Source: Desulfuromonadales bacterium | GTDB lineage: Bacteria; Desulfobacterota; JAENJC01 | Reading direction: 5' to 3' | Length of the DNA: 64,000 nt | Assembly: GCA_919902985.1 (NCBI GenBank) | Contig: CAKKSC010000022.1 | Location: 3,436-67,435, forward strand | Notes under the pieces: model-generated | What the model was told of the DNA's origin: nothing | Seen by the model: only the letters and a program-made list of their open reading frames with translations | Databases searched by the model: none | Translations under genes and position numbers: made by a program | Shown: positions 10,436-53,375 of the stretch, in pieces | How the letters are laid out: every line of letters starts with the position of its first letter | Numbering within the stretch: the first letter of the stretch is position 1

Positions 10436-10457
10436 CCTTCCTCCTTCATCCCTTTCA

Positions 10458-11978
10458 CTATATCCCTGTTATCTCGTACTGCTCCTGATGGAATGTGTTT
10501 CTGGCCTTTATGATGATCTTCTTTCCAAGCAAGGTCTCAAGCTCTTCAACGCTCTGGCTTTCCTCATCATATAAAATGTCTGCTATCTCCGGGTTCACTG
10601 AGATCATAATCTTGTCGCCGGGAAGTTCAATATTGTCACGCCTTATCGCCCTGAATATCCCGTAACAGACCGTGTTCTTTGACTTTATCCTTCCCCTTCC
10701 ATCGCAGTACGGGCATGGCTCGCAAAGGGCCTGGTTCAGGCTCTCCCTCACCCTCTTCCGGGTCATCTCAATCAGGCCAAATTCCGATATCTTCAATATG
10801 TTCGTCCTGGCCTTGTCCTTCTTCAGGGCCTCCATCAGGGCATTGTATACCTTTTCCCTGTTTGCGGGCTTGTCCATGTCTATGAAGTCTATGATTATTA
10901 TGCCGCCAAGGTTTCTAAGACGGAGCTGATAAGCCACCTCCTTGACCGCCTCCAGATTGGTCTTAAGCACCGTGTCTTCGAGCTTCTTTTTACCGGTATA
11001 CCTGCCTGTATTTACGTCAATGGCGGCCAGGGCCTCGGTCTGGTCAATGATTATGTACCCGCCGGACTTGAGCCAGACCCTTTTTCCCAGGGCCCTGCTT
11101 ATCTCAAGCTCTATCCCGAAGGCATCGAATATAGGCTCATTCCTGTCGAAAAGCTCTACATACCCGGAAAGCTTTGGCATGAAGGTATTCACAAACTCCA
11201 TGGCCTTCGCGTATTCCTTCGGGGAGTCTATGACCAGACGGGATATATCTGTGGAGAACATGTCCCTTATGACCCTCAGGGTAAGGTTCAGCTCCGAGTG
11301 GATTAACGATGGGGCAGGTGCGCTTTCCCTCTTTTTCTGAATGCTGTCCCACAGCTTGACAAGATAATCCATATCAGCCTTCAGGTCGTCTTCGCTCTTC
11401 CCCTCACTTACCGTCCTGACAATAAACCCGGTTCCAGGGGGCTTCATCCTGAGGAGGATCTCCTTCAACCTCTTCCTCTCCTTATCGTCCTCAATCCTCC
11501 TCGATACCCCCACATGGTCCACAGTTGGGGTAAAAACGAGGTGCCTTCCAGCCAGGGAGAGATGGGATGTTATCCTGGCTCCCTTGGCTCCGAGAGGCTC
11601 CTTTGATACCTGGACAAGTATCTCCTGCCCCTCTTTTAAAAGGTCCTCAATCGGAACAGACGAGGCAGATGTGAACCTGGCAGGGCCAAACTCAGATTCA
11701 AACTCTATCCCCTCGTCCCCATCTTTCATGAATACCTCGTATTCGTCCAGCTCTTCCCTTACGTCCGTGACATAGAGAAAGGCGGTCCTTTCAAGCCCGA
11801 TATCCACAAAGGCCGCCTGCATGCCTGGAAGTATCTTTACCACCTTCCCTTTGTAAATGTTACCAAATATGCCGAGGTCGCCGCTCCTCTCCACGAAAAG
11901 CTCGGAAACCACGCCGTTCTCGAGGAGGGCAACCCTTGTCTCATATGATGGCGCGTTTATTATCAGTTCATTTGACAT
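10458..11978 (-). CDS. rng: Rne/Rng-family ribonuclease (RNase G-like)
   Basis: S1 domain, DNase I-like catalytic region and Zn-link CPYCDGRG; 506 aa fits RNase G size. Confidence 0.85.
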   Translation of the reverse strand: MSNELIINAPSYETRVALLENGVVSELFVERSGDLGIFGNIYKGKVVKILPGMQAAFVDIGLERTAFLYVTDVREELDEYEVFMKDGDEGIEFESEFGPARFTSASSVPIEDLLKEGQEILVQVSKEPLGAKGARITSHLSLAGRHLVFTPTVDHVGVSRRIEDDKERKRLKEILLRMKPPGTGFIVRTVSEGKSEDDLKADMDYLVKLWDSIQKKRESAPAPSLIHSELNLTLRVIRDMFSTDISRLVIDSPKEYAKAMEFVNTFMPKLSGYVELFDRNEPIFDAFGIELEISRALGKRVWLKSGGYIIIDQTEALAAIDVNTGRYTGKKKLEDTVLKTNLEAVKEVAYQLRLRNLGGIIIIDFIDMDKPANREKVYNALMEALKKDKARTNILKISEFGLIEMTRKRVRESLNQALCEPCPYCDGRGRIKSKNTVCYGIFRAIRRDNIELPGDKIMISVNPEIADILYDEESQSVEELETLLGKKIIIKARNTFHQEQYEITGI

Positions 11979-12963: not shown

Positions 12964-13004
12964 TCTAACCTCCTTCCTTGTAGGGGCGAGGCGTTGCCTC
13001 GCCC

Positions 13005-36268: not shown

Positions 36269-37132
36269 ATGAAGATAAGAAAGGCTGTATTTCCGGCTGC
36301 CGGGCTTGGTACAAGATTCCTTCCCGTAACCAAGGCCATTCCAAAGGAGATGCTCCCCCTGGTTGACACACCGCTGATTCAATACTGCGTGGAGGAGGCC
36401 ATCGCTTCTGGTATAGAGGATGTAATAATAATCACAGGCCGCGGCAAGACGGCCATAGAAGACCATTTCGACACATCAAAAGAACTCGAGGTGTTGTTGG
36501 AGGAAAAGGGGAAGACAGACCTTTTGAAGATGGTCAGGGACATATCAAACCTTGTCAGGTTCTCATACACAAGACAAAAAGAAGCGTTGGGACTTGGGCA
36601 CGCAATCCTTTGCGCTAAAGACCTGGTGGGAGAAGAACCCTTTGCGGTATTTCTGGGAGATGATATCATAGATTCCAAGGTCCCTGCCATGAAACAGATG
36701 ACTGAGGTGTATAAAAAATACAGACACTCCGTCCTGGCAGTACAAAGGGTTCCAAGGGAGAATATATCAAGTTATGGGGTGATTAAAGGGACGGCAGCAG
36801 GTAACCACCTATTTGAAGTAACCGATCTGGTTGAAAAACCGAGGCCCGAAGATGCCCCATCTGACTTGGCGGTCATAGGGAGATATATCCTTACCCCGGA
36901 TGTCTTTGAGTATCTGGAAAATACCAGACCTGGGAAAAACGGGGAGATTCAACTGACCGATGCCCTAAAGGCAATGGCTGGCAGGCATCCCATATATGCC
37001 CTTGAGTTTGAGGGCGACAGGTACGATGCAGGGGACAAGCTTGGTTTTTTAAAGGCCACTGTCTCCCTTGCCCTGAAGAGGGACGATTTAAGAGATGAGT
37101 TTGTCGAATTTCTCAAGGGGTTAAAGCTTTAG
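36269..37132 (+). CDS. galU: UTP--glucose-1-phosphate uridylyltransferase
   Basis: KAVFPAAGLGTRFLPVTKAIPKEMLP N-terminal signature. Confidence 0.85.
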   Translation: MKIRKAVFPAAGLGTRFLPVTKAIPKEMLPLVDTPLIQYCVEEAIASGIEDVIIITGRGKTAIEDHFDTSKELEVLLEEKGKTDLLKMVRDISNLVRFSYTRQKEALGLGHAILCAKDLVGEEPFAVFLGDDIIDSKVPAMKQMTEVYKKYRHSVLAVQRVPRENISSYGVIKGTAAGNHLFEVTDLVEKPRPEDAPSDLAVIGRYILTPDVFEYLENTRPGKNGEIQLTDALKAMAGRHPIYALEFEGDRYDAGDKLGFLKATVSLALKRDDLRDEFVEFLKGLKL

Positions 37133-37190
37133 TGGTCAGGGGTCAGTGATCAGTGGTCAGTTACTGACAACCGGCCACTGACCACCTTTT
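37133..37190 (+). terminator. palindromic repeat (family B) acting as galU terminator
   Basis: TGGTCAGGGGTCAGTGATCAGTGGTCAGTTACTGACAACCGGCCACTGACCACC followed by TTTT; nested stems GTGGTCAG / CTGACCAC. Confidence 0.5.
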
Positions 37191-37203
37191 GGGGGGAGAA
37201 GAT

Positions 37204-37653
37204 ATGGGATCATCACCAAAGCAAGGGAAAGAAAAGACAACAAAGATTGAAAGTGAGATAGACGAGATAGATGAGCCATTCTTTGCCGTCTTCGGATTCG
37301 AATCTAACAAGGAAGAAGGTTTCCCAGTGATAGATGTCTTCGAAAACTCCGACAATATCTTTATAGAGGCCGAACTGCCCGGCATAGACAGGGAGAGGAT
37401 GCGGATAAGTGTAGCTGAAGGGGAGCTGGTGATAGAGGGAGATAAGGCTGGAGACAGGGAGGAGAACGGCAAGGTAAACTATATATGCATAGAGAGGAGC
37501 TTTGGGAAGTTTTGCAGGACGGTAGAGATACCCAAGGCTGCTGACACAAGCAAGGTAAGGGCCAGATACAAGGAAGGGATACTTCTAGTCACCATCCCGA
37601 AGGTTAAAGAACAAAGAAAGAAAAAGAGAAAGATAGAGATAGAGATAGAGTAA
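37204..37653 (+). CDS. Hsp20/alpha-crystallin family small heat-shock protein
   Basis: Alpha-crystallin domain (FPVIDVFENSDNIFIEAELPG...GILLVTIPK); ATG after GGGGGAGAAG. Confidence 0.85.
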   Translation: MGSSPKQGKEKTTKIESEIDEIDEPFFAVFGFESNKEEGFPVIDVFENSDNIFIEAELPGIDRERMRISVAEGELVIEGDKAGDREENGKVNYICIERSFGKFCRTVEIPKAADTSKVRARYKEGILLVTIPKVKEQRKKKRKIEIEIE

Positions 37654-37679
37654 AAATACAAGATATCTGGAGGTAGATA

Positions 37680-40091
37680 GTGGAAGAAAAGGAAACAGAA
37701 GCTGAAGAGTTAAAAATACCTGACACATTGCCGCTTCTTCCAGTCAGGGATATAGTGGTGTTCCCGTACATGATACTCCCTCTCTTCATAGGGAGGGAGA
37801 TGTCCATAAAGGCGGTAGATGATGCCCTTGCTAAGGACCGGCTGATTCTCCTTGTTGCCCAAAAGGATATAAGCGACGAGGACCCCAAGCCGGAAGGAAT
37901 CCATAAAGTCGGGACTGTGGCAATGATAATGAGGATGCTGAAGCTGCCCGACGGAAGGGTAAAAATCCTGGTGCAAGGTCTGACCAAGGCTGCAATAGAT
38001 GAATACGTCCAGTTGAGCCCCACGTATCTTGTTAAGCTGACCAAGATGAAAGAGCCGCCAATCCCGGAGATCTCTCTGGAAACCGAGGCCCTGATGAGGG
38101 CAGTCAAGGAGCAGGTTGGGAAGATAATATCAATGGGGAAGGTACTTTCCCCTGACGTTATCCTGATCCTGGACAGTATAAACGACCCAGGCAGGCTGGC
38201 AGACCTTGTAGCCTCCAACCTTGGGTTGAAGATAGAGGAATCCCAGCAGATCCTTGAGATCGTTGATCCCCTTGAACGCCTTAACAAGATAAATGAGTTT
38301 TTGAACAGGGAGGTCCAACTCCTTACAATGCAGGTCAAGATCCAGTCCCAGGCAAGAGAGGAGATGACTAAGACCCAGAGGGAGTACTATCTCAGGGAGC
38401 AGCTAAGGGCTATCCAGTCTGAACTGGGCGAGATTGATGAAAAGGCCGAGGAAATCACTGACCTCAAGGAGAAGATAAAGGCCGCGAAGATGCCTGAAGA
38501 GGTCGAAAAGGAGTCTAACAAGCAGCTAAAGAGGCTTGAACAGATGCATCCAGATGCTGCTGAATCGGGTGTGATAAGGACATATATAGAATGGCTTACG
38601 GAGCTCCCGTGGAGCGTAGCGACCCAGGACAACCTTGACCTGAAGGCCGCCCAATCGGTGCTGGATGAGGACCACTATGACCTTGAGAAGGTAAAGGAGA
38701 GGATAGTCGAATACCTTGGAGTCAGAAAACTTAAGGAAAAGATGAAGGGGCCGATCCTCTGCTTTGTGGGTCCTCCCGGCGTCGGGAAGACATCTTTGGG
38801 AAAATCTATTGCAAGGGCGCTGGGAAGGAAATTTTTAAGAGTATCACTTGGCGGTATGAGGGACGAGGCGGAGATAAGGGGGCATAGAAGGACATACGTA
38901 GGGGCCCTTCCCGGAAGGATAATCCAGGGGATAAAGCAGGCCGGCACCAATAATCCGATATTCATGCTGGATGAGATAGACAAGGTAGGGACTGACTGGA
39001 GAGGAGACCCATCATCAGCCCTTCTGGAGGTGCTGGATCCGGAGCAGAACTTTGCCTTCAGCGACCACTATCTTAACCTGCCTTTTGACCTCTCCAATGT
39101 GATGTTTATTACGACAGCAAACCTGCTGGATCCTATCCCTCCTGCTCTTAGGGACAGAATGGAGGTAATATCTCTTTCCGGTTATACCGAGGAGGAGAAG
39201 GTAAAGATAGCAAAAAAGTACCTCATCCCGAGACAGGTGGAGGAAAACGGTCTGAAGGCTGAGAATATAGACATTACAGACGAAGGACTCAGGATGATCA
39301 TTTCCCACTATACAAGGGAAGCAGGACTCAGGAATCTCGAAAGAGAGATTGCCGGCGTATGCCGCAAGGTGGCAAGGAGGATAGCCGAGGGGCAGAAAGA
39401 CGTTACTAAGATCACTGCAGCCAATATTCACCGCTTTCTTGGGGTGCCCAAGATACTGCCTGAGGCAGAGCAGGAGAAGAGTGAGGTCGGAGTTGCCACA
39501 GGTCTTGCCTGGACCGAGGCAGGAGGCGAGATCCTTTATATAGAGACTTCCATACTCAAGGGAAAGGGAAGCCTTATCCTTACCGGACATCTGGGAGATG
39601 TGATGAAGGAATCGGCTCAGGCTGCACTCAGTTATGCCAGGTCGAAGGCCATGGATTTCGATATCCCTGAAGACTTCTATGAAAAGAACGATATCCATAT
39701 ACACGTTCCTGCCGGCGCTATTCCAAAAGACGGGCCTTCGGCAGGGGTCACAATGGCCACATCTCTTATTTCCGCATTGACAAAGATACCTGTCAGCAAG
39801 GATGTGGCGATGACTGGAGAGATAACCTTGAGGGGAAGGGTTCTCCCTATCGGAGGGTTGAAGGAAAAGGCCCTGGCTGCACTGATGGCTGGGATAAAGA
39901 CCGTAATAATCCCCAGCAGGAACAAGAAGGACCTTGAGGATATTCCAAAGGAGCTGCGGAAGAAGATAACCTTCATTTTTGCCGACCATATAGATGAAAT
40001 ACTTAAAGTTGCCTTGGTGAAGAAGAAGGATGCCAGTAAGAAGCCGAATAGGCGTCCGGTAAAGACTGTCGGCAGGCGGTCAAGAGCATAA
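37680..40091 (+). CDS. lon: ATP-dependent Lon protease
   Basis: Lon N-domain, AAA+ module GPPGVGKTS, protease domain with PKDGPSAG; GTG start. Confidence 0.95.
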
Positions 40092-40108
40092 AAGTGAAGG
40101 CGAAGAGG

Positions 40109-40137
40109 TAAAAGATAAAAGATAAAAGATAAAAGAT
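40109..40137. repeat. tandem heptamer (AAAAGAT)x4 in AT-rich intergenic region
   Basis: taaaagataaaagataaaagataaaagat directly after the lon stop, followed by ttttaacc repeats. Confidence 0.6.
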
Positions 40138-40234
40138 TTTAAACCTTTCGCCTTTTGCCTTTAACCTTTTAACCTGTTATTCAAGGAGAAACCATCTGTT
40201 AACGGAACTAAAAAAGGGCGGCCTTCAGAGAAAG

Positions 40235-43200
40235 ATGTTTATTCTGATGCTGACGGTAGGTATCCTTCCCGGGCTTGTTGGTATAGCCTTTATATCTTTG
40301 ATGGGTGAAAAGCTCATGCTGCAGTCTATAGGCCCTGGGTTGGTAGGGACTGCGGAAAAGGCGGCATCTGAAGTTGATACAATTTTGGGCCTTCGTAACA
40401 GGGAGGCCGGCGAGCTCGGTAAAAATAAAGCACTTCTGGAGCTTATCAGGAATAATAAAGACAGGTATAATTCGAAGAATGAAAATAAGATACTGGAAGA
40501 GCTTGAGGCGCTCTGGAAATCTGCTGACCCTGCCCTCCTCAAGGCTACCCTTGAAAATGAGGCTTCCTTAATCCTTAGAGGGAGAGTCGACAAAGAGCCT
40601 GATACATTTTGCCACTTTATAGTTACTGATTCAAAAGGAGGTCTTATAGCAGCCTCCCATCCTGTCCCCAACTTTTCTTATTCAGGGGAGGTTTGGTGGA
40701 AAGAGGCTATGGGGGGAGGATCATATTTGAAGCCCCCCCACATGTGTTCTGCAGGCAGAGGAAATTACAACTTGTTTTTTGCCGTGCCAATAATGGAATC
40801 CGAAGGCAAAGAGCCTCTTGGCGTGTTGAAAGTGGAGTTCCAGGTGGGCAAGATCCTTGCCCCATTGAAAAACTTCCGGTATGGTAAAACCGGGCACTTA
40901 CAGATTATTGACTCATCAGGTCTTGTGTTTGCGGAGGCGCTTGGCGTTGAGAATGCCTCTTTCCCCCAATCACTTCTAAAGACTATAAATCAGACAAAGA
41001 CGGGATGGACTATCTCAGTCGATGAGCATGGCGTGAAGTCGGCAATAGCCTTTGCCCCTATAAAGGCACAGGATTGGGACGTTATCCTTACTCAGAATAT
41101 GGAGGAAATATACGCACCTCTGAAGACCCTCGCATGGGGAACAGCCGTCCCCGGTTTATTCACCGTTATACTACTGGCTCTGATTTGGTTTAACATCTCA
41201 AAAAGAATGATTATTAAACCTATCTCACATCTGAGTGAAGGGGCCCACCTTATAGGTCACGGTTACCTGGATTACAGACTCAACATAAAGACAGGAGATG
41301 AGCTTGAAAGCCTTGCTAATGAATTCAATACCATGGCGGGAAATCTCAGCGCATCCCAGGAAAAGCTTAAGATGTGGAATGAGGAGCTTAGGGAAGAAGT
41401 AATGAGGCGGACGGCCGAGCTGGAAGAGGCAAATGAGGAATTAAAGGAAAGCAAAGAGGATATGGAAGACTCCCTCCAGCAGGTGATGGGCTTAAATGAG
41501 GAACTCAAGGACAGCAGAGTGGAGCTGAATAAGAAAAATGCTGACCTTGGCAGCGCCAACCTCAAACTGAGAGAGATGGACAAGCTAAAATCGGAGTTCC
41601 TTGCCAATATGTCCCACGAGCTAAGAACACCTCTTACGGCAATCATTGGGTTCTCTGAGCTTCTGGTAGACGGGGTAATGGGGGACATGAACGAGGAACA
41701 GGCCGGTTGTGTGGGAGACATACTAACCAGCGGTCAGCACCTGCTTAAGCTGATTAACGATATATTGGACCTCTCAAAGATAGAGGCAGGGAAGATGGAG
41801 CTGCACCACGAGACATTTGACCTGGGAGCGACGATATCGTTCATCAGAAAAACGACGGCGGCCCTGATTGAAGAGAAAAAGCAGATATTAAAGATCGAAG
41901 TGTCCGAAGGAATCCCAGATATCTATGCCGACAAGGGGAAGATAAAACAACTCTTACTCAACCTGGTAGGGAATGCCATAAAATTTACACCGGAAGGAGG
42001 GACTATTACTATAGGTGCGGAGTTCAAGGATAGCTATTTTGTGCTTTCAGTATCGGACACAGGGATAGGAATAAAACCGGAAGACAGGGAGAGGATATTC
42101 CAGGAGTTTCAGCAGGGAGAAGGTTCCATATCCAGGGAGTATGAAGGCACTGGCCTTGGTCTCACCTTGACCAGGAAGTTTGCAGAGATGCACGGCGGTA
42201 TCCTGGAGCTGGAAAGCGAGGTGGGAAAAGGGAGCAGGTTCACGGCTTATATCCCGGTTATGCTTGAAAAAAGGTCTTCATTGAGAAAAGAGGAGATTAG
42301 TCCGGTGGAGGAATCCAGGGAAACCAAAGAGATGACAAAACCTTCAGCAGGGCAGGAGACTCAGCCCCTTATCCTTGTGGTGGAAGACGACCCGAAGCTG
42401 TCCAAACTTCTCTCTGTTTATCTGACTCAGTCTGGATACAGAGTAGAAGCTGCAACGGATGGCGATGAGGCGATAAAAAAGGCCGCTATACTCCAGCCGT
42501 TCGCCATCACCCTTGACATCATGCTCCCTAAAAAGGATGGATGGGAGGTCATACAGGAGTTAAAGGCAATTCCTGAGACAAGAGATATACCAGTGATCAT
42601 AGTTTCCATGGTGGAAAATCAGGACCTCGGTTTCTCTCTTGGTGCGCTTGATTATCTTGTAAAACCAGTTACCAGGGAGGCCCTTCTTGGAAGTCTCGAG
42701 AGATACAACGATAAGACAAGGTTCACAAAGGGGGCTATAAATATTCTGGTTGTGGATGATGACCCGAAGATATTGGAATTCCTTTCTACCATCCTGACGA
42801 GGGATGGTTACCATGTAAAATCGGCTTCAGGGGGGGAGGAAGGGCTTCGAATGGCCATTGAACAGTTGCCCGACCTTATCATCCTTGATCTGATGATGCC
42901 AAAGGTCAGTGGGCTTGATGTCGTAAGAGAGCTTAAGAAGCATCCTGACGCCAAAGAGATACCGGTCCTTGTCCTCACTGCAAAAGACCTGACAAAGGAG
43001 GAGAAGGACACCCTCCTGGCGGATGTCGCAAAGGTTGTCCAGAAGGGAGAGCTGTCTAAGGAAGATCTAATAGATGAGATACGGAGGATCGAGGTACTCC
43101 ATCCTGGCAGGGCTGGGCTGTTCGACCATGTAACTGGATTGCTTAACCGCAGATACTTCATAAGCCGGCTGTCTCACGAGATCAACAGGTCTCACAGGTA

Positions 43201-43621
43201 CGGCAGGGACCTTTCCATATCGCTCATAGACGTAGACCATTTTGGGCACTACAACGAGGTAAACGGCTATTTGCTTGGCGATACGCTGCTTAAGGATATT
43301 GCCATGCTCCTCAATAAAAACCTGAGAAAGGCCGACATTGCCATGCGCTACACCGGAGGAAAATTTGCTGTTATATTCCCTGAAACTGGGAAGAATGCCG
43401 CAATGGCGGTTGCCGGTAAACTCTGCACCCTTATAGAGGTGTATCCATTCCCAAAGAGGGAGAATCAGCCTCTTGGAAGAGTGACGATAAGCATATCCCT
43501 TGCGACATATCCAGCCGACGGTATTGAAACCGGAGAGTTGATAAAAAGGCTGGAAAACGCCATAGAAAAGACGGTAAAAGTGGGTGGGAACAGGGCTATG
43601 GATGTGGGAGAGGCACTATGA
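40235..43621 (+). CDS. hybrid sensor histidine kinase (Cache-like sensor, HAMP, HisKA, HATPase, 2x REC, degenerate GGDEF)
   Basis: H-box SHELRTPL, HATPase GTGLGLTL, two receiver domains, and a C-terminal GGDEF-like domain carrying YTGGKFAVIF in place of GG(D/E)EF. Confidence 0.85.
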   Translation: MFILMLTVGILPGLVGIAFISLMGEKLMLQSIGPGLVGTAEKAASEVDTILGLRNREAGELGKNKALLELIRNNKDRYNSKNENKILEELEALWKSADPALLKATLENEASLILRGRVDKEPDTFCHFIVTDSKGGLIAASHPVPNFSYSGEVWWKEAMGGGSYLKPPHMCSAGRGNYNLFFAVPIMESEGKEPLGVLKVEFQVGKILAPLKNFRYGKTGHLQIIDSSGLVFAEALGVENASFPQSLLKTINQTKTGWTISVDEHGVKSAIAFAPIKAQDWDVILTQNMEEIYAPLKTLAWGTAVPGLFTVILLALIWFNISKRMIIKPISHLSEGAHLIGHGYLDYRLNIKTGDELESLANEFNTMAGNLSASQEKLKMWNEELREEVMRRTAELEEANEELKESKEDMEDSLQQVMGLNEELKDSRVELNKKNADLGSANLKLREMDKLKSEFLANMSHELRTPLTAIIGFSELLVDGVMGDMNEEQAGCVGDILTSGQHLLKLINDILDLSKIEAGKMELHHETFDLGATISFIRKTTAALIEEKKQILKIEVSEGIPDIYADKGKIKQLLLNLVGNAIKFTPEGGTITIGAEFKDSYFVLSVSDTGIGIKPEDRERIFQEFQQGEGSISREYEGTGLGLTLTRKFAEMHGGILELESEVGKGSRFTAYIPVMLEKRSSLRKEEISPVEESRETKEMTKPSAGQETQPLILVVEDDPKLSKLLSVYLTQSGYRVEAATDGDEAIKKAAILQPFAITLDIMLPKKDGWEVIQELKAIPETRDIPVIIVSMVENQDLGFSLGALDYLVKPVTREALLGSLERYNDKTRFTKGAINILVVDDDPKILEFLSTILTRDGYHVKSASGGEEGLRMAIEQLPDLIILDLMMPKVSGLDVVRELKKHPDAKEIPVLVLTAKDLTKEEKDTLLADVAKVVQKGELSKEDLIDEIRRIEVLHPGRAGLFDHVTGLLNRRYFISRLSHEINRSHRYGRDLSISLIDVDHFGHYNEVNGYLLGDTLLKDIAMLLNKNLRKADIAMRYTGGKFAVIFPETGKNAAMAVAGKLCTLIEVYPFPKRENQPLGRVTISISLATYPADGIETGELIKRLENAIEKTVKVGGNRAMDVGEAL

Positions 43622-44010
43622 ACAAGATCCTTATTGTCGAGGACAACGAGATGAACCTGAAGCTTATCAGGACCGTGCTGAAGGCAAAAGGATTTCTGTT
43701 AGCGGAGGCCAGGGACGGAGAAGAGGCCCTGAAAATGGCAGTCGCTGAGAGGCCGGACATAATCCTTATTGACATCCAGATCCCAAAGATAGACGGTCTT
43801 GAAGTAACCAGAAGGATTAGGGCAATAGATGACCTTAAAGATAGACAGATAATAGCTATTACAGCCCATGCTATGGAGGGAGACAGGAATAAGATCCTTG
43901 AGGCGGGGTGTGATGGCTACATAGCAAAACCAATAAACACAAGAACCTTCATTGACGAGATTGAAGCGATCTTAAAACAGAAGGATGAAAGGCTGAAGGA
44001 TGAGGGCTGA
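43618..44010 (+). CDS. single-domain response regulator (REC)
   Basis: ILIVEDNEMN...LIDIQIPKIDG...KP receiver motifs; start overlaps the HK stop. Confidence 0.8.
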   Translation: MNKILIVEDNEMNLKLIRTVLKAKGFLLAEARDGEEALKMAVAERPDIILIDIQIPKIDGLEVTRRIRAIDDLKDRQIIAITAHAMEGDRNKILEAGCDGYIAKPINTRTFIDEIEAILKQKDERLKDEG

Positions 44011-45079
44011 AGGCATCCCACATCCCCCGTCCTTACGGGACATCGGCGAATTCGGCCTGATTAAGAGGATTGCACGGAAGGCAAAGAGAAAAGATACATC
44101 CGTCCTTATTGGGATCGGTGATGACGCGGCGGTGCTTACCCCCCCCATCTCCCCCTTATTAAGGGGGGGCGAAGGGGGGGTGGCGCCCCTACTGGTAACA
44201 ACAGATTCGCTCATAGAGGATGTGCATTTCAGACGGGATTATCAGCCGGAAGCCATAGGATGGAAGGCCCTGGCAGTAAATATAAGCGATATTGCCGCAA
44301 TGGGGGGAGTCCCAGAGCATTACCTCCTTTCGCTTGGGGTCCCGGAAGGGATATCAATCGAGTATATAGACCGTTTTGTTAGGGGTATGACTGAAGCAGC
44401 TGAGGAATATGGGCTCTCCATGATCGGGGGGGACACCACCTCATCTCCTGACAAGTTTTATATATCCGTTACCGTATTGGGGAAGGGAAGCGAGACCCTC
44501 TTACTAAGGAAAGGTGCAAGGGCTGGAGATGTTATATTTGTCACAGGGACGTTAGGGGATTCGGCGCTGGGGCTTAAGATATTAGAAGATAAGAAGGTAA
44601 GCATTTGGGAAGATGAACGTTTCTCAACCGCTCAACCTCTCAACCGCTCAACCTCTCAACTCATAAACCGCCATCTCAGGCCCACTCCAAGGGTCAAGGA
44701 AGGCATACAACTGGCAAAGACCGGCATGGTTACATCTATGATAGATATAAGCGACGGACTCCTGTGTGACCTTGGGCATATATGCGAAGAGAGCAGGGTG
44801 GGGGCCAGGGTACGGATAGACGAGCTTCCACTGTCACAGGGATTCAATACCTTCTCGGCCAAATATGGCGGAATAGAGCTTGCCTTGAGCGGTGGTGAGG
44901 ATTACGAACTTTTGTTTACAGTGCGAAGCAAAGATGTTAAAAGCTTCATGAGTATGACCGAAGGGACAAAATATACGCCCATAGGCGAGGTCATGAAGGA
45001 CAGGGTAATTGAGGTAATTGGAGCCGATGGCAGCAGGTATCTTCCCAAAAGTAGCGGATACGAGCACTTCAGAAGGTAA
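44000..45079 (+). CDS. thiL: thiamine-monophosphate kinase with two internal repeat insertions
   Basis: GIGDDAAVL...LVTTDSLIEDVHF and GGDTTSSPD ThiL/AIR-synthase-like motifs; 359 aa (longer than usual). Confidence 0.8.
   Translation: MRAEGIPHPPSLRDIGEFGLIKRIARKAKRKDTSVLIGIGDDAAVLTPPISPLLRGGEGGVAPLLVTTDSLIEDVHFRRDYQPEAIGWKALAVNISDIAAMGGVPEHYLLSLGVPEGISIEYIDRFVRGMTEAAEEYGLSMIGGDTTSSPDKFYISVTVLGKGSETLLLRKGARAGDVIFVTGTLGDSALGLKILEDKKVSIWEDERFSTAQPLNRSTSQLINRHLRPTPRVKEGIQLAKTGMVTSMIDISDGLLCDLGHICEESRVGARVRIDELPLSQGFNTFSAKYGGIELALSGGEDYELLFTVRSKDVKSFMSMTEGTKYTPIGEVMKDRVIEVIGADGSRYLPKSSGYEHFRR
44139..44180 (+). repeat. GC-rich palindromic mini-element in-frame in thiL
   Basis: CCCCCCCCATCTCCCCCTTATTAAGGGGGGGCGAAGGGGGGG encoding PPISPLLRGGEGGV. 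Confidence 0.6.
44623..44661 (+). repeat. tandem repeat (CTCAACCGCTCAACCT)x2.4 inside thiL
   Basis: ctcaaccgctcaacctctcaaccgctcaacctctcaact encoding QPLNRSTSQLINR. Confidence 0.6.
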
Positions 45080-45965
45080 AGAGAGACTGCCGGCTATCTC
45101 TGACCTGGTTAGAGAGAGGCATGGGGCCTTGCTCCAGAGGGACACAGCGGCCATCCATTACTCGGAAGCCACCTTTAAGGCAATAAGGGATATCCTCTTT
45201 GAAAGAGAAGGGTTTGATTTAGATTCGTATAAAGACAAATGCATCCAGAGGAGGATATCATTCAGGATAAGGACATCAGGATGCAAGAACACTGAAGAGT
45301 ATATTGAACTCCTCAATAAGAAGGAAGAGGAGGTAAAGAAGCTTCTTAACGCCTTAACTATTAATGTAACGGAGTTTTTCAGGAACCAATCCACCTTTGA
45401 CAAGCTGAAAGATATCGTATTTCCTGACATATTTGCAGCAAATGGAGGGGGTAGAACGGTAAGGATATGGAGCGCCGGGTGCGCCAGCGGGGAAGAGCCT
45501 TATACCATTGCCATCATCCTGAAAGAGTTTTTCCCTGAAGAGTTAAAAAGATTCAACATAGAAATAACGGCAACCGATGTAGATGAAGGGGTTCTGAAAA
45601 AGGCCGCTGAAGGTCATTATCAAAGGGACAAGCTGGTCGGCATGGTTCCCGAGCTGAGGGTCAGGTTTTTTAAGGAAGATGGCGATAAGTACGGGCTTTC
45701 CAACGAGATAAAAAAAATGGTAACTTTCAGGAAAGAGGATATATTTCAGGAAAGACTGAACAGGGACAAAGACCTTATCATCTGCAGGAACCTGCTGATA
45801 TATTTTTCCAGAGAGAAACAGGAGTGGGTACTGAATGAATTCTGGAAAACCCTCAACCCCGGCGGATTTCTTATCCTTGGCAGGGCAGAGATACTGGTAG
45901 GAGAGAGCAGAAAACTGTTTTCAACCATATGCCCGAGAGAAAGGATATATAGAAAATCGTTTTGA
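45018..45965 (+). CDS. cheR: chemotaxis protein methyltransferase CheR
   Basis: CheR N-terminal helical domain plus SAM-MTase (RIWSAGCASGEEPYTIAI); start overlaps the thiL 3' end and is uncertain. Confidence 0.85.
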   Translation: MEPMAAGIFPKVADTSTSEGKERLPAISDLVRERHGALLQRDTAAIHYSEATFKAIRDILFEREGFDLDSYKDKCIQRRISFRIRTSGCKNTEEYIELLNKKEEEVKKLLNALTINVTEFFRNQSTFDKLKDIVFPDIFAANGGGRTVRIWSAGCASGEEPYTIAIILKEFFPEELKRFNIEITATDVDEGVLKKAAEGHYQRDKLVGMVPELRVRFFKEDGDKYGLSNEIKKMVTFRKEDIFQERLNRDKDLIICRNLLIYFSREKQEWVLNEFWKTLNPGGFLILGRAEILVGESRKLFSTICPRERIYRKSF

Positions 45966-46021
45966 AACTATTGTAGAGACGCCCAGCCGGGGCGTCTCTA
46001 CAATAATAAAGGAGGTTCATT

Positions 46022-47278
46022 ATGAGAGTGGAACTTGGTCAAAAGTTTATTATCGGATTCATACTGGTAATAGGGGCTGTGGTGATGGTCCCTTACCTGA
46101 TCGGCTTTCTCCAGATGGAGGGCTGGATAAACCAGCTTATTTCTACTTTGGCAGCCATTATTGTGGGGCTCACGATAGGAATATTCATGGCAAGGAGCTT
46201 TAGCAAGGACTTCAGGGAGATTACTTACTCCGCAGAGATGATAAGCAAGGGGGACCTGACTCATAAGATTCCCCCTTACAGTAAGGTGTTTCCGGATGAA
46301 ACTGCAGACATTGCTGACGCTATAAACAGGATGCTCTCAAACCTGCAGGATCTGGTCAGGCACATAAAAGAGGTGTCGGACAGGGTCTCTGAGGCAGCTC
46401 AGGGACTTTCTGCGACTGCCGAAGAGATGAACGCATCTACCGAGGAGATCGGTTCTACCATGGAGCATGTCTCAAAGGGGGCCGAGCAGCAGGTCGAGCT
46501 GGCGGAAAAGACATCAAGGCTTATAAAGGAGATGGCATCGTCCATAGAGCTTATAGCTATAAGCGCAAAAGATGCTGCGGATTCGGCGACTTCAACCAGC
46601 CATACAGCAGAAAATGGCGGGAATATGGCACGGGCTGCCATGGAAAAAATGAGAAAGGTGTTTGACAGTATAGATGATTCCAGGGTGTCCGTCATGAACC
46701 TCGGCGACAAGGTAGGTCAGATCGGGAAGATTGCCGATGTTATAACGAGGATCGCCCAACAGACCAACCTGTTGGCCCTGAACGCAACCATCGAAGCAGC
46801 CAGGGCCGGTGAATATGGAAGGGGATTTGCTGTGGTTGCAGAGGAGGTGCGCAAGCTTGCGGAGAGCACGGCCAACTCTGCTGAGGAGATCACTACTATC
46901 ATCGAGGAAGTAGAAAAGGAAAGCGGGAAGACACTGGGGTCTATGAAGGAAAGCACAAGGGAGATAGAGGCAGGGAAAGAGGTCATAAATACTACAACAA
47001 AATCGTTTGAGGATGTAGTAAGGATCGTCATGGAGACAACGATGAAGGTTAAGAAGATATCCGATCTATCCCAGAAAGGGACTGAGGGGGCAGAAAAGAT
47101 GGTCAAGGCCATAGATGAGATAGCAAAAGTGGCGGAAGACAATGCCGCGGCTACAGAGCAGATATCTGCAGCAACTGAGCAACAGACCGCCTCCATGGAG
47201 GAAATGGCAAGGGCAGCCCAGGAGCTGTCCGATACCTCCGAGCAACTGAAAGGCGTTGTATCAAGGTTCAGTGTATAG
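46022..47278 (+). CDS. methyl-accepting chemotaxis protein
   Basis: Two TM helices, HAMP, and the conserved MCP signalling domain ([35 protein letters not shown]). Confidence 0.85.
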
Positions 47279-47285
47279 GGGACAT

Positions 47286-47717
47286 ATGCAGCAGGTAATG
47301 ACATTTCAGATTGGGAACGAGTTTTACGGCATTGATGTCGCAAAGGTGAGTGAGATTGTGGAGTTTACTCAACTGACGCCTTTACCCAAGGCCCCTGTAT
47401 GGATAAACGGGATATTGAACCATCATGGACGGATAGCAACCGTATTGAACCTCTCCACTTTTTTCGACTTCATTCCTACCAGTGAGAACAATTTAAGGAG
47501 GATTGCTGTAATAGACAATTCGTTAATGGATATTGGGGTCCTCCTGGAGGGGCATTTAGAAGTTATCTCTGAATGGGAAGCCAAGACAGAGATATCGGCT
47601 GATCCAGAATTTTTGAAAAGCAAATACGTCGCCAACGTACTTGTTTCCAGGGGTAGAGTCGTCAATCTGCTTGATACGGACAGACTCATAACTGACCTGG
47701 ATGGATATTTTGTGTAA
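47286..47717 (+). CDS. cheW: chemotaxis coupling protein CheW
   Basis: CheW-like domain (FQIGNEFYGIDVAKVSEIV...GRIATVLNL); ATG after AGGGGA. Confidence 0.85.
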   Translation: MQQVMTFQIGNEFYGIDVAKVSEIVEFTQLTPLPKAPVWINGILNHHGRIATVLNLSTFFDFIPTSENNLRRIAVIDNSLMDIGVLLEGHLEVISEWEAKTEISADPEFLKSKYVANVLVSRGRVVNLLDTDRLITDLDGYFV

Positions 47718-47761
47718 TAAAATTCACATGAGCCATAGGCTCACAAAGGAGCCTGAAAATT

Positions 47762-47875
47762 AACCCACCCTCACTTCAATCCTCTACCCACGTGGCATAA
47801 ATCATTGAGGGAGAGGAAACCTCTCTTATTCCCTCCCCTTCACAAGGGGAGGGTTAGGGTGAGGATGGGGTAAAT
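47762..47875. repeat. intergenic cluster of GC-rich hairpins related to the in-frame palindromic elements
   Basis: aacccaccctcacttcaatcctc ... GAGAGG-aaac-CCTCTC ... CCCTCCCCTT-caca-AGGGGAGGG ... gggttagggtgagg. Confidence 0.4.
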
Positions 47876-47907
47876 AGGGGATTTTCGGAGCAAAATAAGG
47901 AGGGAAT

Positions 47908-48279
47908 ATGTCTTATAAGGTACTTGTAGTTGATGACGCAGCCTTTATGAGGAACATGATCAAGGATGTCTTTGGCTCAATGCCCGGGTTTACAGTGATA
48001 GGGGAGGCTTCCAACGGCATAGAGGCGATAGAGAAATACAAGGAACTGCGGCCTGACCTGGTCACCATGGATATCGTGATGCCGCTCAAGAGCGGAATAG
48101 AAGCGGCCAGAGAGATAACCAACGCGGACCGTGAGGCCAGGATAATAATGTGCAGCGCCCTGGGGCAGGAAAGTCTTGTTATGGAGGCCATTGACGCCGG
48201 AGCCAGTGACTTTATAGTAAAGCCCTTCAAGGCAGAGAAGGTACAGGAAGTTGTAAGCAGGGTTCTTAGGATTAAATAA
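47908..48279 (+). CDS. cheY: chemotaxis response regulator CheY
   Basis: Single REC domain (VLVVDDAAFMR...VTMDIVMPLKSG...KP). Confidence 0.85.
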   Translation: MSYKVLVVDDAAFMRNMIKDVFGSMPGFTVIGEASNGIEAIEKYKELRPDLVTMDIVMPLKSGIEAAREITNADREARIIMCSALGQESLVMEAIDAGASDFIVKPFKAEKVQEVVSRVLRIK

Positions 48280-48303
48280 GGTGTAGAGGGGTCGTTTTTA
48301 TTT

Positions 48304-50265
48304 ATGGATATGTCCAAATATAAAAGCATGTTTTTAACTGAGGCCAGGGAACATCTTGGTAATATGAACCAGGTTGTGCTTGTTCTGGAAAAAGATCCTG
48401 GAGACAAGGGGAATATAGACTCACTTTTCAGATCGGCCCATTCAGTTAAAGGCATGGCTGCATCCATGGGTTATGATGGTATAGCTGAGCTTAGCCATAA
48501 AATGGAAGATATGATGGACAAGTTTCGCAAGGGGGAGATGCCTATAACGCCGGAGGCGACCGACATCCTTCTGGAAGGAGTTGACGCCCTTGGGCAGATG
48601 ATAGATGCGGTGGAGCAGGACAGGATATCTGATGTGGATGTCTCCAGGACAATAGAACGGATAAAGGGGTACGGGGCACAAAAGTCAGTGGTCAGTCTGA
48701 ACCCTGCTACTGAAGTCGAGCCACCGGCCACTGACTACCGGCCACTGACCACCGGGTTCAATATCTCCATAGAAATCTCCCAGGACTCTCCGGCGCCTTC
48801 TGTCAGGGCCGTCCTGATACTTAGAAAACTAAAAGAGCTTGGAGAGGTCATATCGACAAACCCTTCCGAGGCGGACCTGAAAGGCAGGAAGTTGTCAGGG
48901 CCGTTGTCTGTTAAGTTTGTATCTGACACGGCTCAGGAGAAGATTGAAGAGGTTGTCAGGGGGATGGGAGAGGTGTCTTCCCTAAAGGTCGAGCCTCTGA
49001 AAGATGAGGTTCAGGCTCCTGATTTTAGAACTCCAATCGCCGCTCCCCAAAAAGAATCGGTGAAAAGTGAAGCAGAGGAACCGAAGGGATCGAGACCCGA
49101 AATCCCTTCAATAGGGCCTTTGCAGCAGACCGTTAAGGTCAATACCGCCCTTCTCGACTATTTTGTGAATGCCATTGGCGAACTAATCATAAATAAGTCC
49201 AGGCTCCATGATATCTCACGGGGGATACCTTCCAAGGAGTTAAGTGATGGGCTAAACCATCTTGACAGGCTTGTAAGAGACCTGCAAAACCAGGTGATGA
49301 GCGTCAGGATGATGCCTATGGAAAGCTTAATGGAGAGGTTCCCAAGGATTGTCCGGGACCTGGCCAGGAAAGAGGGGAAAGAAGTCACTCTTAACATGGA
49401 GGGGCAGGACATAGAACTGGACCGTTCCATTATAGAAGGACTGGGAAATCCTCTGATACATATAATCAGGAATGCTGTGGACCACGGCATTGAACTGCCT
49501 GACGACAGAAGGGCCGCCGGCAAACCTCTCCCTGCCAAGATTTTAATAAAGGCATCCAGGGAAAAGGACCAGGTTTTCATAGAGATATCCGATGACGGAA
49601 AGGGAATGGACCCTGAAAGGCTTAAGGAAGCAGCAATAAACAAGGGGCTGATAACCCCTGAACAGGCAGCAGGGATGAGTAAAAAGGAAGCGCTCCTCCT
49701 TACATGTATTCCCGGCTTCAGCACGGCCAAGGTCGTTTCCGACATATCAGGAAGAGGCGTCGGGATGGACGCCGTGAAGTCGGCAATAGAGCCTATCGGC
49801 GGCAGTATTGATATAGATTCCAGGCCGGGGGCAGGGACAAGGATTACACTTAAGCTCCCTCTGACAGTCGCCATAATCCAGTCCCTTTTGATTGAAGCCG
49901 CCCAGGAGATATATGCCATTCCGATAAGCAGGGTGCTGAAGACTATGGAGATAGACAGGGATACTGTGAAGACCAGTCAGAAGCAGAGTCTGATAGATTT
50001 TGACGGCTTTCTTATACCTCTCCTCAGCATTAGGAAGATATTTACACTGCCGCCCTTGGCAGGGCAGGCCAAATTTATACCGGTTGTAGTCACTGAGGTT
50101 AAAGGTAAGATCGTAGGACTAGTGGTAGACAGGCTGGTTGGACAACAGGAAACCTTTATAAGGCCGCTTGGAAGGCCCCTCAACAAGATAGGCGGCCTGT
50201 CCGGAACCACTGTCCTCGGTAACGGCCGGACCATTTTTTTATTGGATGTGGGGAATATAGTATGA
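48304..50265 (+). CDS. cheA: chemotaxis histidine kinase CheA
   Basis: P1 Hpt (SAHSVKG), dimerisation domain, HATPase and C-terminal CheW-like domain; a repeat-derived linker insertion after P1. Confidence 0.9.
   Translation: MDMSKYKSMFLTEAREHLGNMNQVVLVLEKDPGDKGNIDSLFRSAHSVKGMAASMGYDGIAELSHKMEDMMDKFRKGEMPITPEATDILLEGVDALGQMIDAVEQDRISDVDVSRTIERIKGYGAQKSVVSLNPATEVEPPATDYRPLTTGFNISIEISQDSPAPSVRAVLILRKLKELGEVISTNPSEADLKGRKLSGPLSVKFVSDTAQEKIEEVVRGMGEVSSLKVEPLKDEVQAPDFRTPIAAPQKESVKSEAEEPKGSRPEIPSIGPLQQTVKVNTALLDYFVNAIGELIINKSRLHDISRGIPSKELSDGLNHLDRLVRDLQNQVMSVRMMPMESLMERFPRIVRDLARKEGKEVTLNMEGQDIELDRSIIEGLGNPLIHIIRNAVDHGIELPDDRRAAGKPLPAKILIKASREKDQVFIEISDDGKGMDPERLKEAAINKGLITPEQAAGMSKKEALLLTCIPGFSTAKVVSDISGRGVGMDAVKSAIEPIGGSIDIDSRPGAGTRITLKLPLTVAIIQSLLIEAAQEIYAIPISRVLKTMEIDRDTVKTSQKQSLIDFDGFLIPLLSIRKIFTLPPLAGQAKFIPVVVTEVKGKIVGLVVDRLVGQQETFIRPLGRPLNKIGGLSGTTVLGNGRTIFLLDVGNIV
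48684..48753 (+). repeat. palindromic repeat (family B) in-frame in the cheA P1-P2 linker
   Basis: GTCAGTGGTCAGT...CCGGCCACTGACTACCGGCCACTGACCACC; shares CCGGCCACTGACCACC and the GTGGTCAGT arm with the galU terminator repeat at 37133-37190. Confidence 0.5.
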
Positions 50266-52148: not shown

Positions 52149-53375
52149 ATGATAGCATACTTTGATTGTTTTTCAGGTATCAGCGGTGATATGATTGTGG
52201 GGGCCTTCCTGGATGCCGGAGTTCCGTTTGAGTGGCTGAAGGATGAGCTGGAGAAACTCTCACTGAAAGGATATAAGCTGGGGGTAGAGGACGTTAAACG
52301 GGGAGGAATAGGAGGGAAGAAATTCCATGTAGAGACCCCCCCCCTCAATCCCCTCCTTAGTAAGGGGGGGGTAGTTGAGAGAAGACTTGGAGACATAACG
52401 GGGATAATCGAGAAAAGCACCCTCTCGAAAGATGTTAAAGAGCTGAGCATTCTGGTATTTCAAAGACTTGCCGGGGCAGAGGCAAGGGTACACAGGATCG
52501 GGGTTGACGATATACACTTCCATGAGGTAGGCGGAGTAGACTCCATTATTGATATTGTGGCAGCATCCCTGTCCCTCTCTTTTCTGAAAATAAAAGAGGT
52601 TTATGCATCAGAGATTCCAGTGTCTCACGGCATAATATTGAGTAGTCACGGGAGGTTGCCTCTGCCCGCGCCTGCCACGATGGAGCTGCTGAAGGATGTC
52701 CCTGTTTGTCAAAGTTCAACAACAGGCGAGCTTGTGACACCAACCGGTGCAGCCTTTCTTTCCGTAGTATGCAAAGGGTTTGGTCCCATCAGACCTATGA
52801 GGCTTAAAGGTATTGGATATGGGGCTGGAGAAAGGGATAATGAAGGTCTTCCGAACCTGCTGAGGGTAATGATTGGAGAGCCACCCCCCCTCAATCCCCC
52901 CCTTAATAAGGGGGGGGCGAAAGGGGGGGTAGAGGTTGACTCCGTCATGGTCATAGAGTCCAACATAGACGACATGAGCCCTGAGATTTACGGTTTTGTC
53001 ATGGAGCGGCTCTTTGATGAGGGGGCGCTGGATGTTTCTCTGATACCTGTCTACATGAAAAAAGGGAGGCCTGGAACCATTGTCCAGGTCTTGTGTGAGG
53101 CTGGGATGGAAAAGTCGCTTGGAGAGTTGCTCCTTAAGGAGACCTCGACAATAGGTGTCAGGTTTTACAGGACGGACAGATTGAAGCTGCAGCGGGAAAC
53201 CGTTGAGGTAAAGACCAGGTTTGGCACAGTAAGAGCGAAGGTGGCAAGGTCTCCATGGGGGAACAAGGCGCGGCCTGAGTACGAAGACTGCAGGAAGGTG
53301 GCTATGGATATGGGAGCTCCCCTTCTGGATGTCTATACAGAAGCTGTTAAGGAGTTTAAGGAAAATGACGAATAG
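52149..53375 (+). CDS. larC: nickel-pincer cofactor biosynthesis protein LarC (DUF111) carrying two in-frame palindromic insertions
   Basis: N-terminus MIAYFDCFSGISGDMIVGAFLDAGV matches the LarC family. Confidence 0.8.
   Translation: MIAYFDCFSGISGDMIVGAFLDAGVPFEWLKDELEKLSLKGYKLGVEDVKRGGIGGKKFHVETPPLNPLLSKGGVVERRLGDITGIIEKSTLSKDVKELSILVFQRLAGAEARVHRIGVDDIHFHEVGGVDSIIDIVAASLSLSFLKIKEVYASEIPVSHGIILSSHGRLPLPAPATMELLKDVPVCQSSTTGELVTPTGAAFLSVVCKGFGPIRPMRLKGIGYGAGERDNEGLPNLLRVMIGEPPPLNPPLNKGGAKGGVEVDSVMVIESNIDDMSPEIYGFVMERLFDEGALDVSLIPVYMKKGRPGTIVQVLCEAGMEKSLGELLLKETSTIGVRFYRTDRLKLQRETVEVKTRFGTVRAKVARSPWGNKARPEYEDCRKVAMDMGAPLLDVYTEAVKEFKENDE
52336..52371 (+). repeat. GC-rich palindromic mini-element in-frame in larC (copy 1)
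   Basis: CCCCCCCCCTCAATCCCCTCCTTAGTAAGGGGGGGG encoding PPLNPLLSKGG. Confidence 0.6.
52884..52929 (+). repeat. GC-rich palindromic mini-element in-frame in larC (copy 2)
   Basis: CCCCCCCTCAATCCCCCCCTTAATAAGGGGGGGGCGAAGGGGGGG encoding PPPLNPPLNKGGAKGG. Confidence 0.6.

Follow-up and report, generated by a model that had tools for sequence, protein, structure and literature searches.

The closest described counterparts of the two elements treated here, which lie directly behind galU and within cheA on a 64,000-nucleotide stretch (the window) of a Desulfuromonadales bacterium contig, are tandem heptanucleotide repeats of other bacteria. Short tandemly repeated repetitive sequences (STRRs), with their 7-bp units, form hairpins between genes of filamentous cyanobacteria, where their function is unexplained and roles in mRNA stability or translational coupling have been suggested (PMC2670836). 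TAACTGA direct repeats have been documented in marine Beggiatoaceae, cyanobacteria, and Bacteroidetes (MacGregor 2015, PMC4679880); as summarized in that article, heptanucleotides are the most abundant long simple sequence repeats (LSSRs), for which polymerase slippage was proposed (Mrazek et al. 2007, discussed in PMC4679880). Families of 3 to 5 tandem units of seven, eight, or nine nucleotides have been described from Geobacter metallireducens (Aklujkar et al. 2009, PMC2700814). Its heptanucleotides (GGACCGG, MTYCTGA) occur as 4 to 5 tandem units, the families are mostly opposite-strand pairs situated between genes and "even within genes," and the orthologous proBA spacer has a different sequence in a sister species (PMC2700814).

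The galU and cheA elements are of this already known heptanucleotide-repeat kind (STRR/LSSR), encountered here in a metagenome-assembled genome (MAG) of groundwater "Deltaproteobacteria." Their likeness to STRRs consists of (i) tandem 7-nt units, (ii) several unit families per genome, (iii) copies that appear dispersed, to judge from two loci in the window and others in related genomes, and (iv) inverted-array hairpins between co-transcribed genes; moreover, the cyanobacterium Argonema has a long array of GTCAGTG/GTCAGTT, the very unit of galU and cheA. They differ in their host, an uncultured groundwater "Deltaproteobacteria"/Thermodesulfobacteriota-type MAG and not a cyanobacterium (nor is one suggested by the gene content, with its che cluster, lon, and selA), and in having in-frame copies midway through housekeeping proteins, i.e., CheA and isoleucyl-tRNA synthetase (IleRS), with stop-avoiding unit variants. 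STRRs inside a functional gene, that for RNase P RNA, were reportedly described by Vioque in 1997 (cited in PMC2858038).

With the Geobacter families, the present arrays have in common a deltaproteobacterial lineage, paired tandem heptamers, and replacement at orthologous sites; the Geobacter unit sequences are different, however, and were read by the authors as sites for global regulators (IHF/HU) or as regulatory RNAs, with no reading-frame or stop-avoidance analysis in the accessible text of the paper (PMC2700814). Common to the TAACTGA repeats and ours are the ACTGA core, location at gene boundaries, a forward orientation with stops in three frames, repeat-encoded peptides in "hypothetical proteins" of scattered phyla, and a 7-nt period for which slippage is proposed. 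Most of the TAACTGA sets, though, consist of direct repeats lying just upstream of start codons, not of inverted pairs, and their copies internal to open reading frames (ORFs) lie mostly at protein ends (PMC4679880).

Paired heptanucleotide arrays at galU and cheA

A preliminary description of the window, made from the sequence alone, had reported related palindromes at 37133–37190 and 48684–48753. Both are located where it placed them, and their kinship is borne out by the match statistics below; what was taken for a discrete palindromic element is, instead, two heptanucleotide arrays in inverted orientation whose number of units varies, and the strings shared between loci are their 7-nt units. 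The two sites have in common the unit GGTCAGT (complement, ACTGACC), with CGRCC variants, and at both loci an array of units is followed by its inverted array, such that a hairpin can form. The two copies belong to one family of heptanucleotide inverted-pair arrays of the STRR/LSSR kind; our explanation of them as a whole, including how they arose, we consider probable.

The 16-mer CCGGCCACTGACCACC is made up of two adjoining units (CGGCCAC TGACCAC), the complement of the left-arm unit GTGGTCA, and matches the window at 37171, 48724 (one mismatch), and 48738; i.e., there are three matches at ≤2 mismatches versus 0.04 expected, a number reached in none of 100 shuffles. For a 13-mer of the arm, seven matches were found versus 0.79 expected, every one at the galU or cheA locus. 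Period-7 arrays number four versus 0.15 expected from dinucleotide-preserving shuffles, all four at hairpins; those away from galU and cheA have different units, namely GGATGAG/CTCATCC (10346–10451) and TAAAAGA/CCTTTNN (40103–40179). At least three head-to-tail copies of a 7-nt unit, the arrangement that characterizes STRRs, were found by Tandem Repeats Finder (TRF) at both galU (period 7, 4.4 copies, 37131–37161) and cheA (period 14, 2.5 copies, 48721–48755), with relatives having five units per arm. Across 223 kb of related loci there are 40 period-7 arrays, about half of them deep within long ORFs, and GGTCAGT, GTGAGAC, GGATGAG, and AAAACTC are among the unit families that recur. This lineage is strongly enriched for arrays of GGTCAGT and several further 7-nt units; the arrays are located directly behind stop codons and in protein loops or linkers that are tolerant. 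Rfam, at gathering thresholds, returned no family in the window, and a search of phage genomes gave no matches.

The features of the two loci are as follows.

36269–37132, plus strand: galU (UTP-glucose-1-phosphate uridylyltransferase), from the ORF, its translation, and a Pfam NTP_transferase match (3.1e-35); TAG stop codon at 37130–37132
37132–37161, plus strand: left arm of the galU hairpin, GTGGTCA GGGGTCA GTGATCA GTGGTCA GT (from the sequence, TRF, and the period-7 scan), opening on the final base of the galU stop codon
37162–37186, plus strand: right arm at galU, made of the inverted units TACTGAC AACCGGC CACTGAC CACC (TACTGACAACCGGCCACTGACCACC), including the 16-mer at 37171–37186
37187–37203, plus strand: TTTT (37187–37190), then GGGGGGAGAAGAT, the hsp20 ribosome-binding region
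37204–37653, plus strand: hsp20 (HSP20 Pfam match), with its ATG at 37204
48304–50265, plus strand: cheA, with P1/Hpt (residues 7–105), P2 (residues 152–231), dimerisation, HATPase_c, and CheW-like domains
48684–48696, plus strand: remnant left arm in cheA, GTCAGT GGTCAGT (GTCAGTGGTCAGT; codes for SVVS)
48697–48722, plus strand: central segment in cheA, CTGAACCCTGCTACTGAAGTCGAGCC, 26 nt (codes for LNPATEVEP)
48723–48755, plus strand: right arm in cheA, ACCGGC CACTGAC TACCGGC CACTGAC CACCGG (ACCGGCCACTGACTACCGGCCACTGACCACCGG; codes for PATDYRPLTTG)

Stop codons and the coding copies

All three frames of a pure ACTGACC array contain a stop codon. In cheA, each unit that would set TGA in frame reads CGA or CGG (CGG in the window), and in a hisF gene from an unrelated metagenome, which has the same hairpin, in-frame TGA is changed to GGA or AGA, mostly at every third unit. 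The need for every third unit of an ACTGACC-reading arm to lose its in-frame TGA accounts for the alternation of CACTGAC with CACCGRC and would thereby explain the 16-mer singled out in the preliminary description. The noncoding galU copy contains the CCGGCCAC variant, which avoids stops in cheA; its presence at galU hints at copying from a coding-type source.

The cheA element and the P1–P2 linker

The cheA copy is translated in frame as KSVVSLNPATEVEPPATDYRPLTTG (residues 127–151), in the interval between P1 and P2, as had been proposed. In the proposal of an in-frame insertion, it is the frame that stands and the recent event that falls: the element is the entire linker, old and remodeled in 21-nt steps, and is common to lineages whose CheA proteins are only ~70% identical. 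We collected and aligned 47 CheA homologues and fetched DNA for seven lineages (L and P numbers below designate loci and proteins of relatives). The alignment agrees with the earlier assertion that this linker tolerates length variation, as both its length and its sequence vary widely among the homologues.

The complete element is present in L007 and L008 (90% identity), with five units per arm around a 26-nt center; the left units read GTCAGTG GTCAGTG GCCAGAC GCCAGTG GTCAGT and the inverted units ACCGACC ACTGACC ACCGACC ACTGACC ACCGG, with a fold of −47.8 kcal/mol (z = −5.4). The element is also carried by L011 and L133, in lineages with ~70% identical CheA that are dispersed over the clade in a neighbor-joining tree. 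The left arm of the window copy is 21 nt (three units, seven codons) shorter than those of L007, L011, and L133, and its hairpin folds no better than shuffles (z = −0.8); in P0004–P0010 CheA, it is seven codons of the right arm that have been lost instead. The center consists of degenerate units that partly pair in the longer relatives, and it is near-identical across the lineages ~70% identical in CheA. Elsewhere the element is decayed (L135, P0014, P0016–18, P0020), a GTAG-type palindrome stands in place of the left arm and center (L134), or a second heptamer hairpin is nested in the old one, thereby renewing the element (L009/P0002). In CheA homologues at ~47% identity, the linkers are unrelated and differ in length, and no empty site was found among the cheA genes compared.

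The cheA copy simply encodes a flexible P1–P2 tether. It is not an assembly artifact, because an identical CheA protein sequence is encoded on contigs of at least six independent public assemblies, one of them from Hainich groundwater. An internal start after the hairpin, giving a CheA-short form, was rejected as neither a start codon nor a ribosome-binding site was seen by eye.

The galU–hsp20 junction

For this junction, GalU relatives were found and their loci fetched (GalU 87–95% identical to that of the window). In L138 (87%), the junction reads TAG GAGAGAGATTT ATG, a hairpin-free spacer of 11 nt; in L136/L137 (95%), it holds a 95-nt hairpin of ATGCAAA/TTTGCAT units, and in L139 (88%), a hairpin of CAAATTC/GAATTTG units. 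Orthologous sites are empty in some relatives and occupied by another unit in others, and unit number differs between close relatives. Since the L138 junction has 11 nt and the others carry unrelated units, the window hairpin has been inserted behind the galU stop codon and ahead of the hsp20 ribosome-binding site; comparison of the filled site with the empty one shows no target duplication. The same pattern of unit turnover is seen after lon and inside an AIRS-family gene.

The hairpin had been said to serve as the galU terminator, a role that the comparison does not sustain. The RNA of 37125–37200 folds at −30 kcal/mol (z = −2.3), and a stem is present, but it is followed by TTTT and then GGGGGG, short of the U-tract of an intrinsic terminator (≥5 U in 8), with the four T's running into the hsp20 Shine-Dalgarno sequence; a consensus terminator scan did not call it. 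Neither is the structure conserved at the orthologous gene end, being missing in L138 and replaced by hairpins of unrelated sequence in L136 and L139, and the 11-nt spacer of L138 means that a terminator is not needed there. Most likely, the galU copy is no required terminator and acts at most as an mRNA hairpin (via 3′-end protection or partial attenuation). The idea of an hsp20 RNA thermometer was considered and rejected, the sequence not being kept in relatives.

Copies in other genes and genomes

The family extends beyond these two places, to ileS and a GH3-like gene of relatives, and GGTCAGT arrays are widespread. In the ileS genes of relatives, the GGTCAGT family is in frame at two sites, giving left-arm and right-arm peptides; IleRS of L008 carries QWSGVSGQGSVV, while those of L009 and L011 have SGQ(R/W)PVVSGR and, ~165 nt downstream, (A/S)DHRP(P/T)T(T/A)(D/G)H, with the inverted arms of L009 and L011 flanking conserved coding sequence. 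Single arms can thus be found separately, evidence against a mobile unit with a fixed hairpin shape. The ileS of the window is without the GGTCAGT unit and has other palindrome families at the two sites used in relatives. Within this gene (54801–57653) there are three in-frame palindromes of other families, at 55440–55472, 55587–55637, and 57186–57236, one of GTAG type (GGTAGGGGCGTATGGCAATACGCCCTTACAA, an 11-residue peptide) and two of C/G type (ACTCCCCCC...GGGGGAGT, 17-residue peptides); at the three positions, relatives have GGTCAGT arrays, other inserts, or nothing, with the third position empty in L008 and L011.

Scanning 596 Gb of genome contigs with the 16-mer returned at least 120 single, taxonomically scattered matches, which is about chance level. 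Among the matches listed, the sole informative one was L032, another contig of the L011 genome, in which a GH3-like gene has two in-frame arrays (LSTDHRPLATDH and NQWSVAGGQWP) ~500 nt apart. The central 20-mer of the cheA element matched one cheA relative and one unrelated contig in Joint Genome Institute (JGI) metagenomes, a weak negative given how poorly the lineage is covered there.

A composite query of six-frame translations and heptad peptides matched 444 proteins at E ≤ 1. The top matches listed of these 444 are largely ORFs of GQWSVVS-type heptads from many phyla, some of them fused to real enzymes, and include those of the filamentous cyanobacteria Argonema and Oscillatoria. At the Argonema locus (L142), an intergenic run of roughly 25–30 GTCAGTG/GTCAGTT units adjoins a GTAGGGGCG...CGCCCCTAC palindrome (GTAG type) and a CTTTTGA array, the same repeat mix as in the window.

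Many database "hypothetical proteins" with GQWSVVS heptads (among P0241–P0360) are translated GGTCAGT arrays that match Pfam PF21300 (LbR_Ice_bind), the beta roll of grass antifreeze proteins, an assignment that is likely false. Matches of this type further include Burkholderia pseudomallei ORFs and a bird record named "perforin-1, partial"; such odd matches echo those reported for TAACTGA repeats (PMC4679880).

Selection, folding, and origin of the arrays

As a model for these arrays, we propose that they would be repeatedly copied into, or seeded at, a few insertion-tolerant positions. Once there, an array would gain and lose 7-nt units through replication slippage, with the likeness of its arms kept by intrastrand template switching or gene conversion. 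Within genes, only three-unit changes (21 nt, seven residues) would survive, and in the ACTGACC-reading arm every third unit would have to shed its in-frame TGA. The elements are probably neutral or selfish DNA, and not dedicated regulators.

Several points weigh against this model. The GGTCAGT unit is found at just two loci in the 64-kb window, with more in related genomes. Neither a transposase nor a target-site duplication nor a donor copy came to light, no search having been aimed at a transposase or at REP-associated tyrosine transposases (RAYTs; REP, repetitive extragenic palindrome). The presence of a hairpin at the galU–hsp20 junction in three lineages could reflect selection for the hairpin and not mere tolerance. 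Finally, the synonymous conservation of the cheA element is not predicted by a purely neutral model. When the window is compared with L011 and L133, and these with each other, identity at third codon positions within the element reaches 0.8–0.93 versus a gene mean of ~0.5 (standard deviation, 0.15), with the element being the top-ranking segment of the gene for the window–L011 and L011–L133 pairs, and the elevation is limited to the element. Between L007 and L011, the same codon is used at 22 of 25 identical residues versus 50% gene-wide (P = 8e-5); for other pairs, which are not independent, P = 0.009–0.11. This excess conservation is real but modest, and either constraint at the nucleic acid level or short recombination tracts with the repeated arms as anchors can explain it.

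Folding comparisons bear on the same question. RNAalifold keeps a 27-pair cheA hairpin across three lineages, with one compensatory pair and several broken ones, and found no covariation support for it, three sequences being too few. In 12 of 13 heptamer hairpins (from the window, L007, L009, L011, L133, L136, L139, and L143), the antisense strand is more stable than the sense strand, on which A·C mismatches occur, partly as a by-product of stop avoidance; this asymmetry argues against selection on mRNA structure. Its cause may lie in the avoidance of stops by coding copies or in strand-specific mutation bias.

Among the alternatives, chance or low complexity as the source of the galU–cheA likeness, with no biological relationship, is scarcely credible; the shared strings are indeed short (13–16 nt) and the unit simple, but the shuffle controls on the 16-mer and 13-mer already refute it, and the period-7 enrichment and the return of GGTCAGT at further loci of relatives also speak against it. 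It is unlikely that the galU element functions as a Rho-independent terminator, or at least as a selected 3′ mRNA-stabilizing hairpin, that separates galU from the heat shock gene hsp20. A stable hairpin beginning at the stop codon and followed by TTTT is what this alternative calls for, and hairpins of differing sequence at exactly this junction in three lineages would fit selection for structure; set against these are the lack of a terminator call, the GGGGGG after only four T's, the directly adjoining hsp20 ribosome-binding site, and the hairpin-free 11-nt spacer of L138, as well as the slightly better folding of the antisense strand (−30.1 versus −29.3 kcal/mol) and the occurrence of like hairpins within ORFs, where termination would be harmful. 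Selection on the cheA element at the nucleic acid level, e.g., as an RNA or DNA structure within the gene, such as one that makes translation pause between P1 and P2, or as an array bound by a regulator of the kind proposed for Geobacter (IHF/HU) and Beggiatoa (S1/Csp/CsrA), is in our estimation improbable. The raised third-position identity, the same-codon excess (P from 8e-5 to 0.1), and the hairpin kept in three lineages would all be in its favor, yet only one of the pairs in that hairpin is compensatory and several are broken, the fold of the window copy does not surpass that of shuffles, the sense RNA folds more weakly than the antisense, and the element has been replaced or remodeled in the close relatives L009 and L134 and has decayed in others; moreover, a short recombination tract with its anchors in the repeated arms would produce equal conservation.

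Non-autonomous mobile DNA, of the MITE (miniature inverted-repeat transposable element), REPIN (REP doublets forming hairpins), or small dispersed repeat (SDR) type, moved as hairpins by a transposase encoded elsewhere and preferring existing hairpins or gene ends, is quite unlikely. Such elements could account for orthologous sites filled in some relatives and empty in others, for copies dispersed over several genes and genomes, for reuse of the same sites by other palindromes (GTAG type in L134 cheA, C/G and GTAG types in the window ileS), and for the hint of a coding-type source given by the CCGGCCAC variant at galU. The arrays, however, have neither a fixed length nor terminal inverted repeats distinct from the arrays themselves, no target-site duplication accompanies the filled galU site, single arms stand alone or hundreds of nucleotides apart in ileS and the GH3-like gene, and the cheA central 20-mer found one unrelated match besides a cheA relative in JGI metagenomes. 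REPs, bacterial interspersed mosaic elements (BIMEs), and REPINs are comparable as extragenic palindromes found at the 3′ ends of genes, which can shield mRNA and act as hot spots for insertion (PMC3116915, PMC3733652); REPs, though, are single palindromes of 20–40 nt with a GTAG or CGTC head and a link to RAYTs, whereas the present elements are headless tandem heptamer arrays (GTGGTCA.../...TGACCAC, with neither GTAG nor CGTC). Rickettsia palindromic elements (RPEs) and in-frame MITEs, e.g., of Coxiella and Anabaena, likewise enter genes in frame as palindromes without destroying function (PMC3184786, PMC5896051), and an in-frame palindrome at an ortholog-variable site of a conserved protein is what we find in the CheA linker and in ileS of relatives. 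Nonetheless, RPEs and MITEs have consensus lengths of ~100–150 bp or more, with terminal inverted repeats and target duplications in MITEs, while the present elements vary by 7-nt units, and the galU and cheA copies share heptamer units alone. There is, lastly, a slim chance that a dedicated mechanism makes or inserts heptamer hairpins at gene ends and hairpin tips, and that the cheA copy is conserved at the nucleotide level for a function of its hairpin, whether in expressing cheA or in signaling recombination or replication; under that reading, L009 cheA, where a new hairpin is nested within the old, would exemplify such insertion.

Other repeats in the window

The GGATGAG-type element (10346–10451) consists of GGATGAG ×4, a spacer, and CTCATCC-type units, lying between or overlapping the minus-strand ORFs 9554–10435 and 10458–11978, with a fold of −43.5 kcal/mol for the minus strand (z = −2.9). 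The unit returns in relatives at the response regulator/AIRS junction (L007, 5782–5838) and in frame in larC (L009, 14678–14710, SSLIPHPSSL). Directly after the lon stop codon (40103–40179), TAAAAGA ×4 is followed by CCTTTNN units, with a hairpin at z = −3.7; at the equivalent site, L138 and L139 have CGTGAGA arrays, and L136 and L007 merely a degenerate 7-nt periodicity.

Within the AIRS-family gene (44000–45079), an 8-nt tandem array, CTCAACCG, of ~5–6 copies is in frame at 44622–44671; at ~190–205 codons from the start of this gene, L007 has GATTCAA and AAACTCA arrays and L011 has GGGAGTT. At the overlap between the response regulator end and the AIRS start (43980–44013), a 14-nt repeat of GAAGGATGA type is followed by GGCATCCCACATCCCC, resembling a worn copy of the clean GGATGAA ×4/TCATCCC hairpin of L007 at the same junction.

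A C/G-rich palindrome, CCCCCCCTCAATCCCCCCC...GGGGGGGCGAAAGGGGGGG, lies at 52883–52930 within the larC (Ni_insertion) ORF 52149–53375 and is presumably the "C/G family" of the preliminary description. Perfect GTAG-headed intergenic palindromes, REP-like in appearance, occur at 12978–13010 and 45969–46005 (TTGTAGGGGCGAGGC/GCCTCGCCCCTACAA and TATTGTAGAGACGCCC/GGGCGTCTCTACAATA); palindromes of GTAG type also form part of the L134 cheA linker, stand beside the Argonema heptamer array, and occur at 55440–55472 of the window. The cheW–cheY spacer (47760–47890) holds a long imperfect palindrome, C/T-rich versus G/A-rich (CCCACCCTCAC...CCCTCCCC...GGGGAGGG...GGGTGAGG), where L007 and L009 have an unrelated short palindrome and L011 a hairpin of 9-nt period (CACAAAGGA type).

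Implications

Heptanucleotide arrays are among the commonest unexplained repeats of bacterial genomes, and several consequences for annotation follow from their presence. They generate spurious "hypothetical proteins," with GQWSVVS-type runs able to match Pfam LbR_Ice_bind, and they inflate the apparent divergence of linkers; furthermore, a hairpin after a stop codon that has neither a U-tract nor conservation should not be annotated as a terminator.

Ultimately, this lineage provides unusually clean comparative material, in which one and the same junction is empty, filled, or differently filled between genomes with GalU proteins 87–95% identical. Three useful details emerge from it, namely the 21-nt steps, the removal of in-frame TGA, and the turnover of units at orthologous sites; where arrays sit in the middle of essential proteins, the first two show the filtering exerted by selection. 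Should a dedicated mechanism prove to be at work, the filled, empty, and replaced sites of this groundwater lineage would make the decades-old question of STRR origin directly testable.

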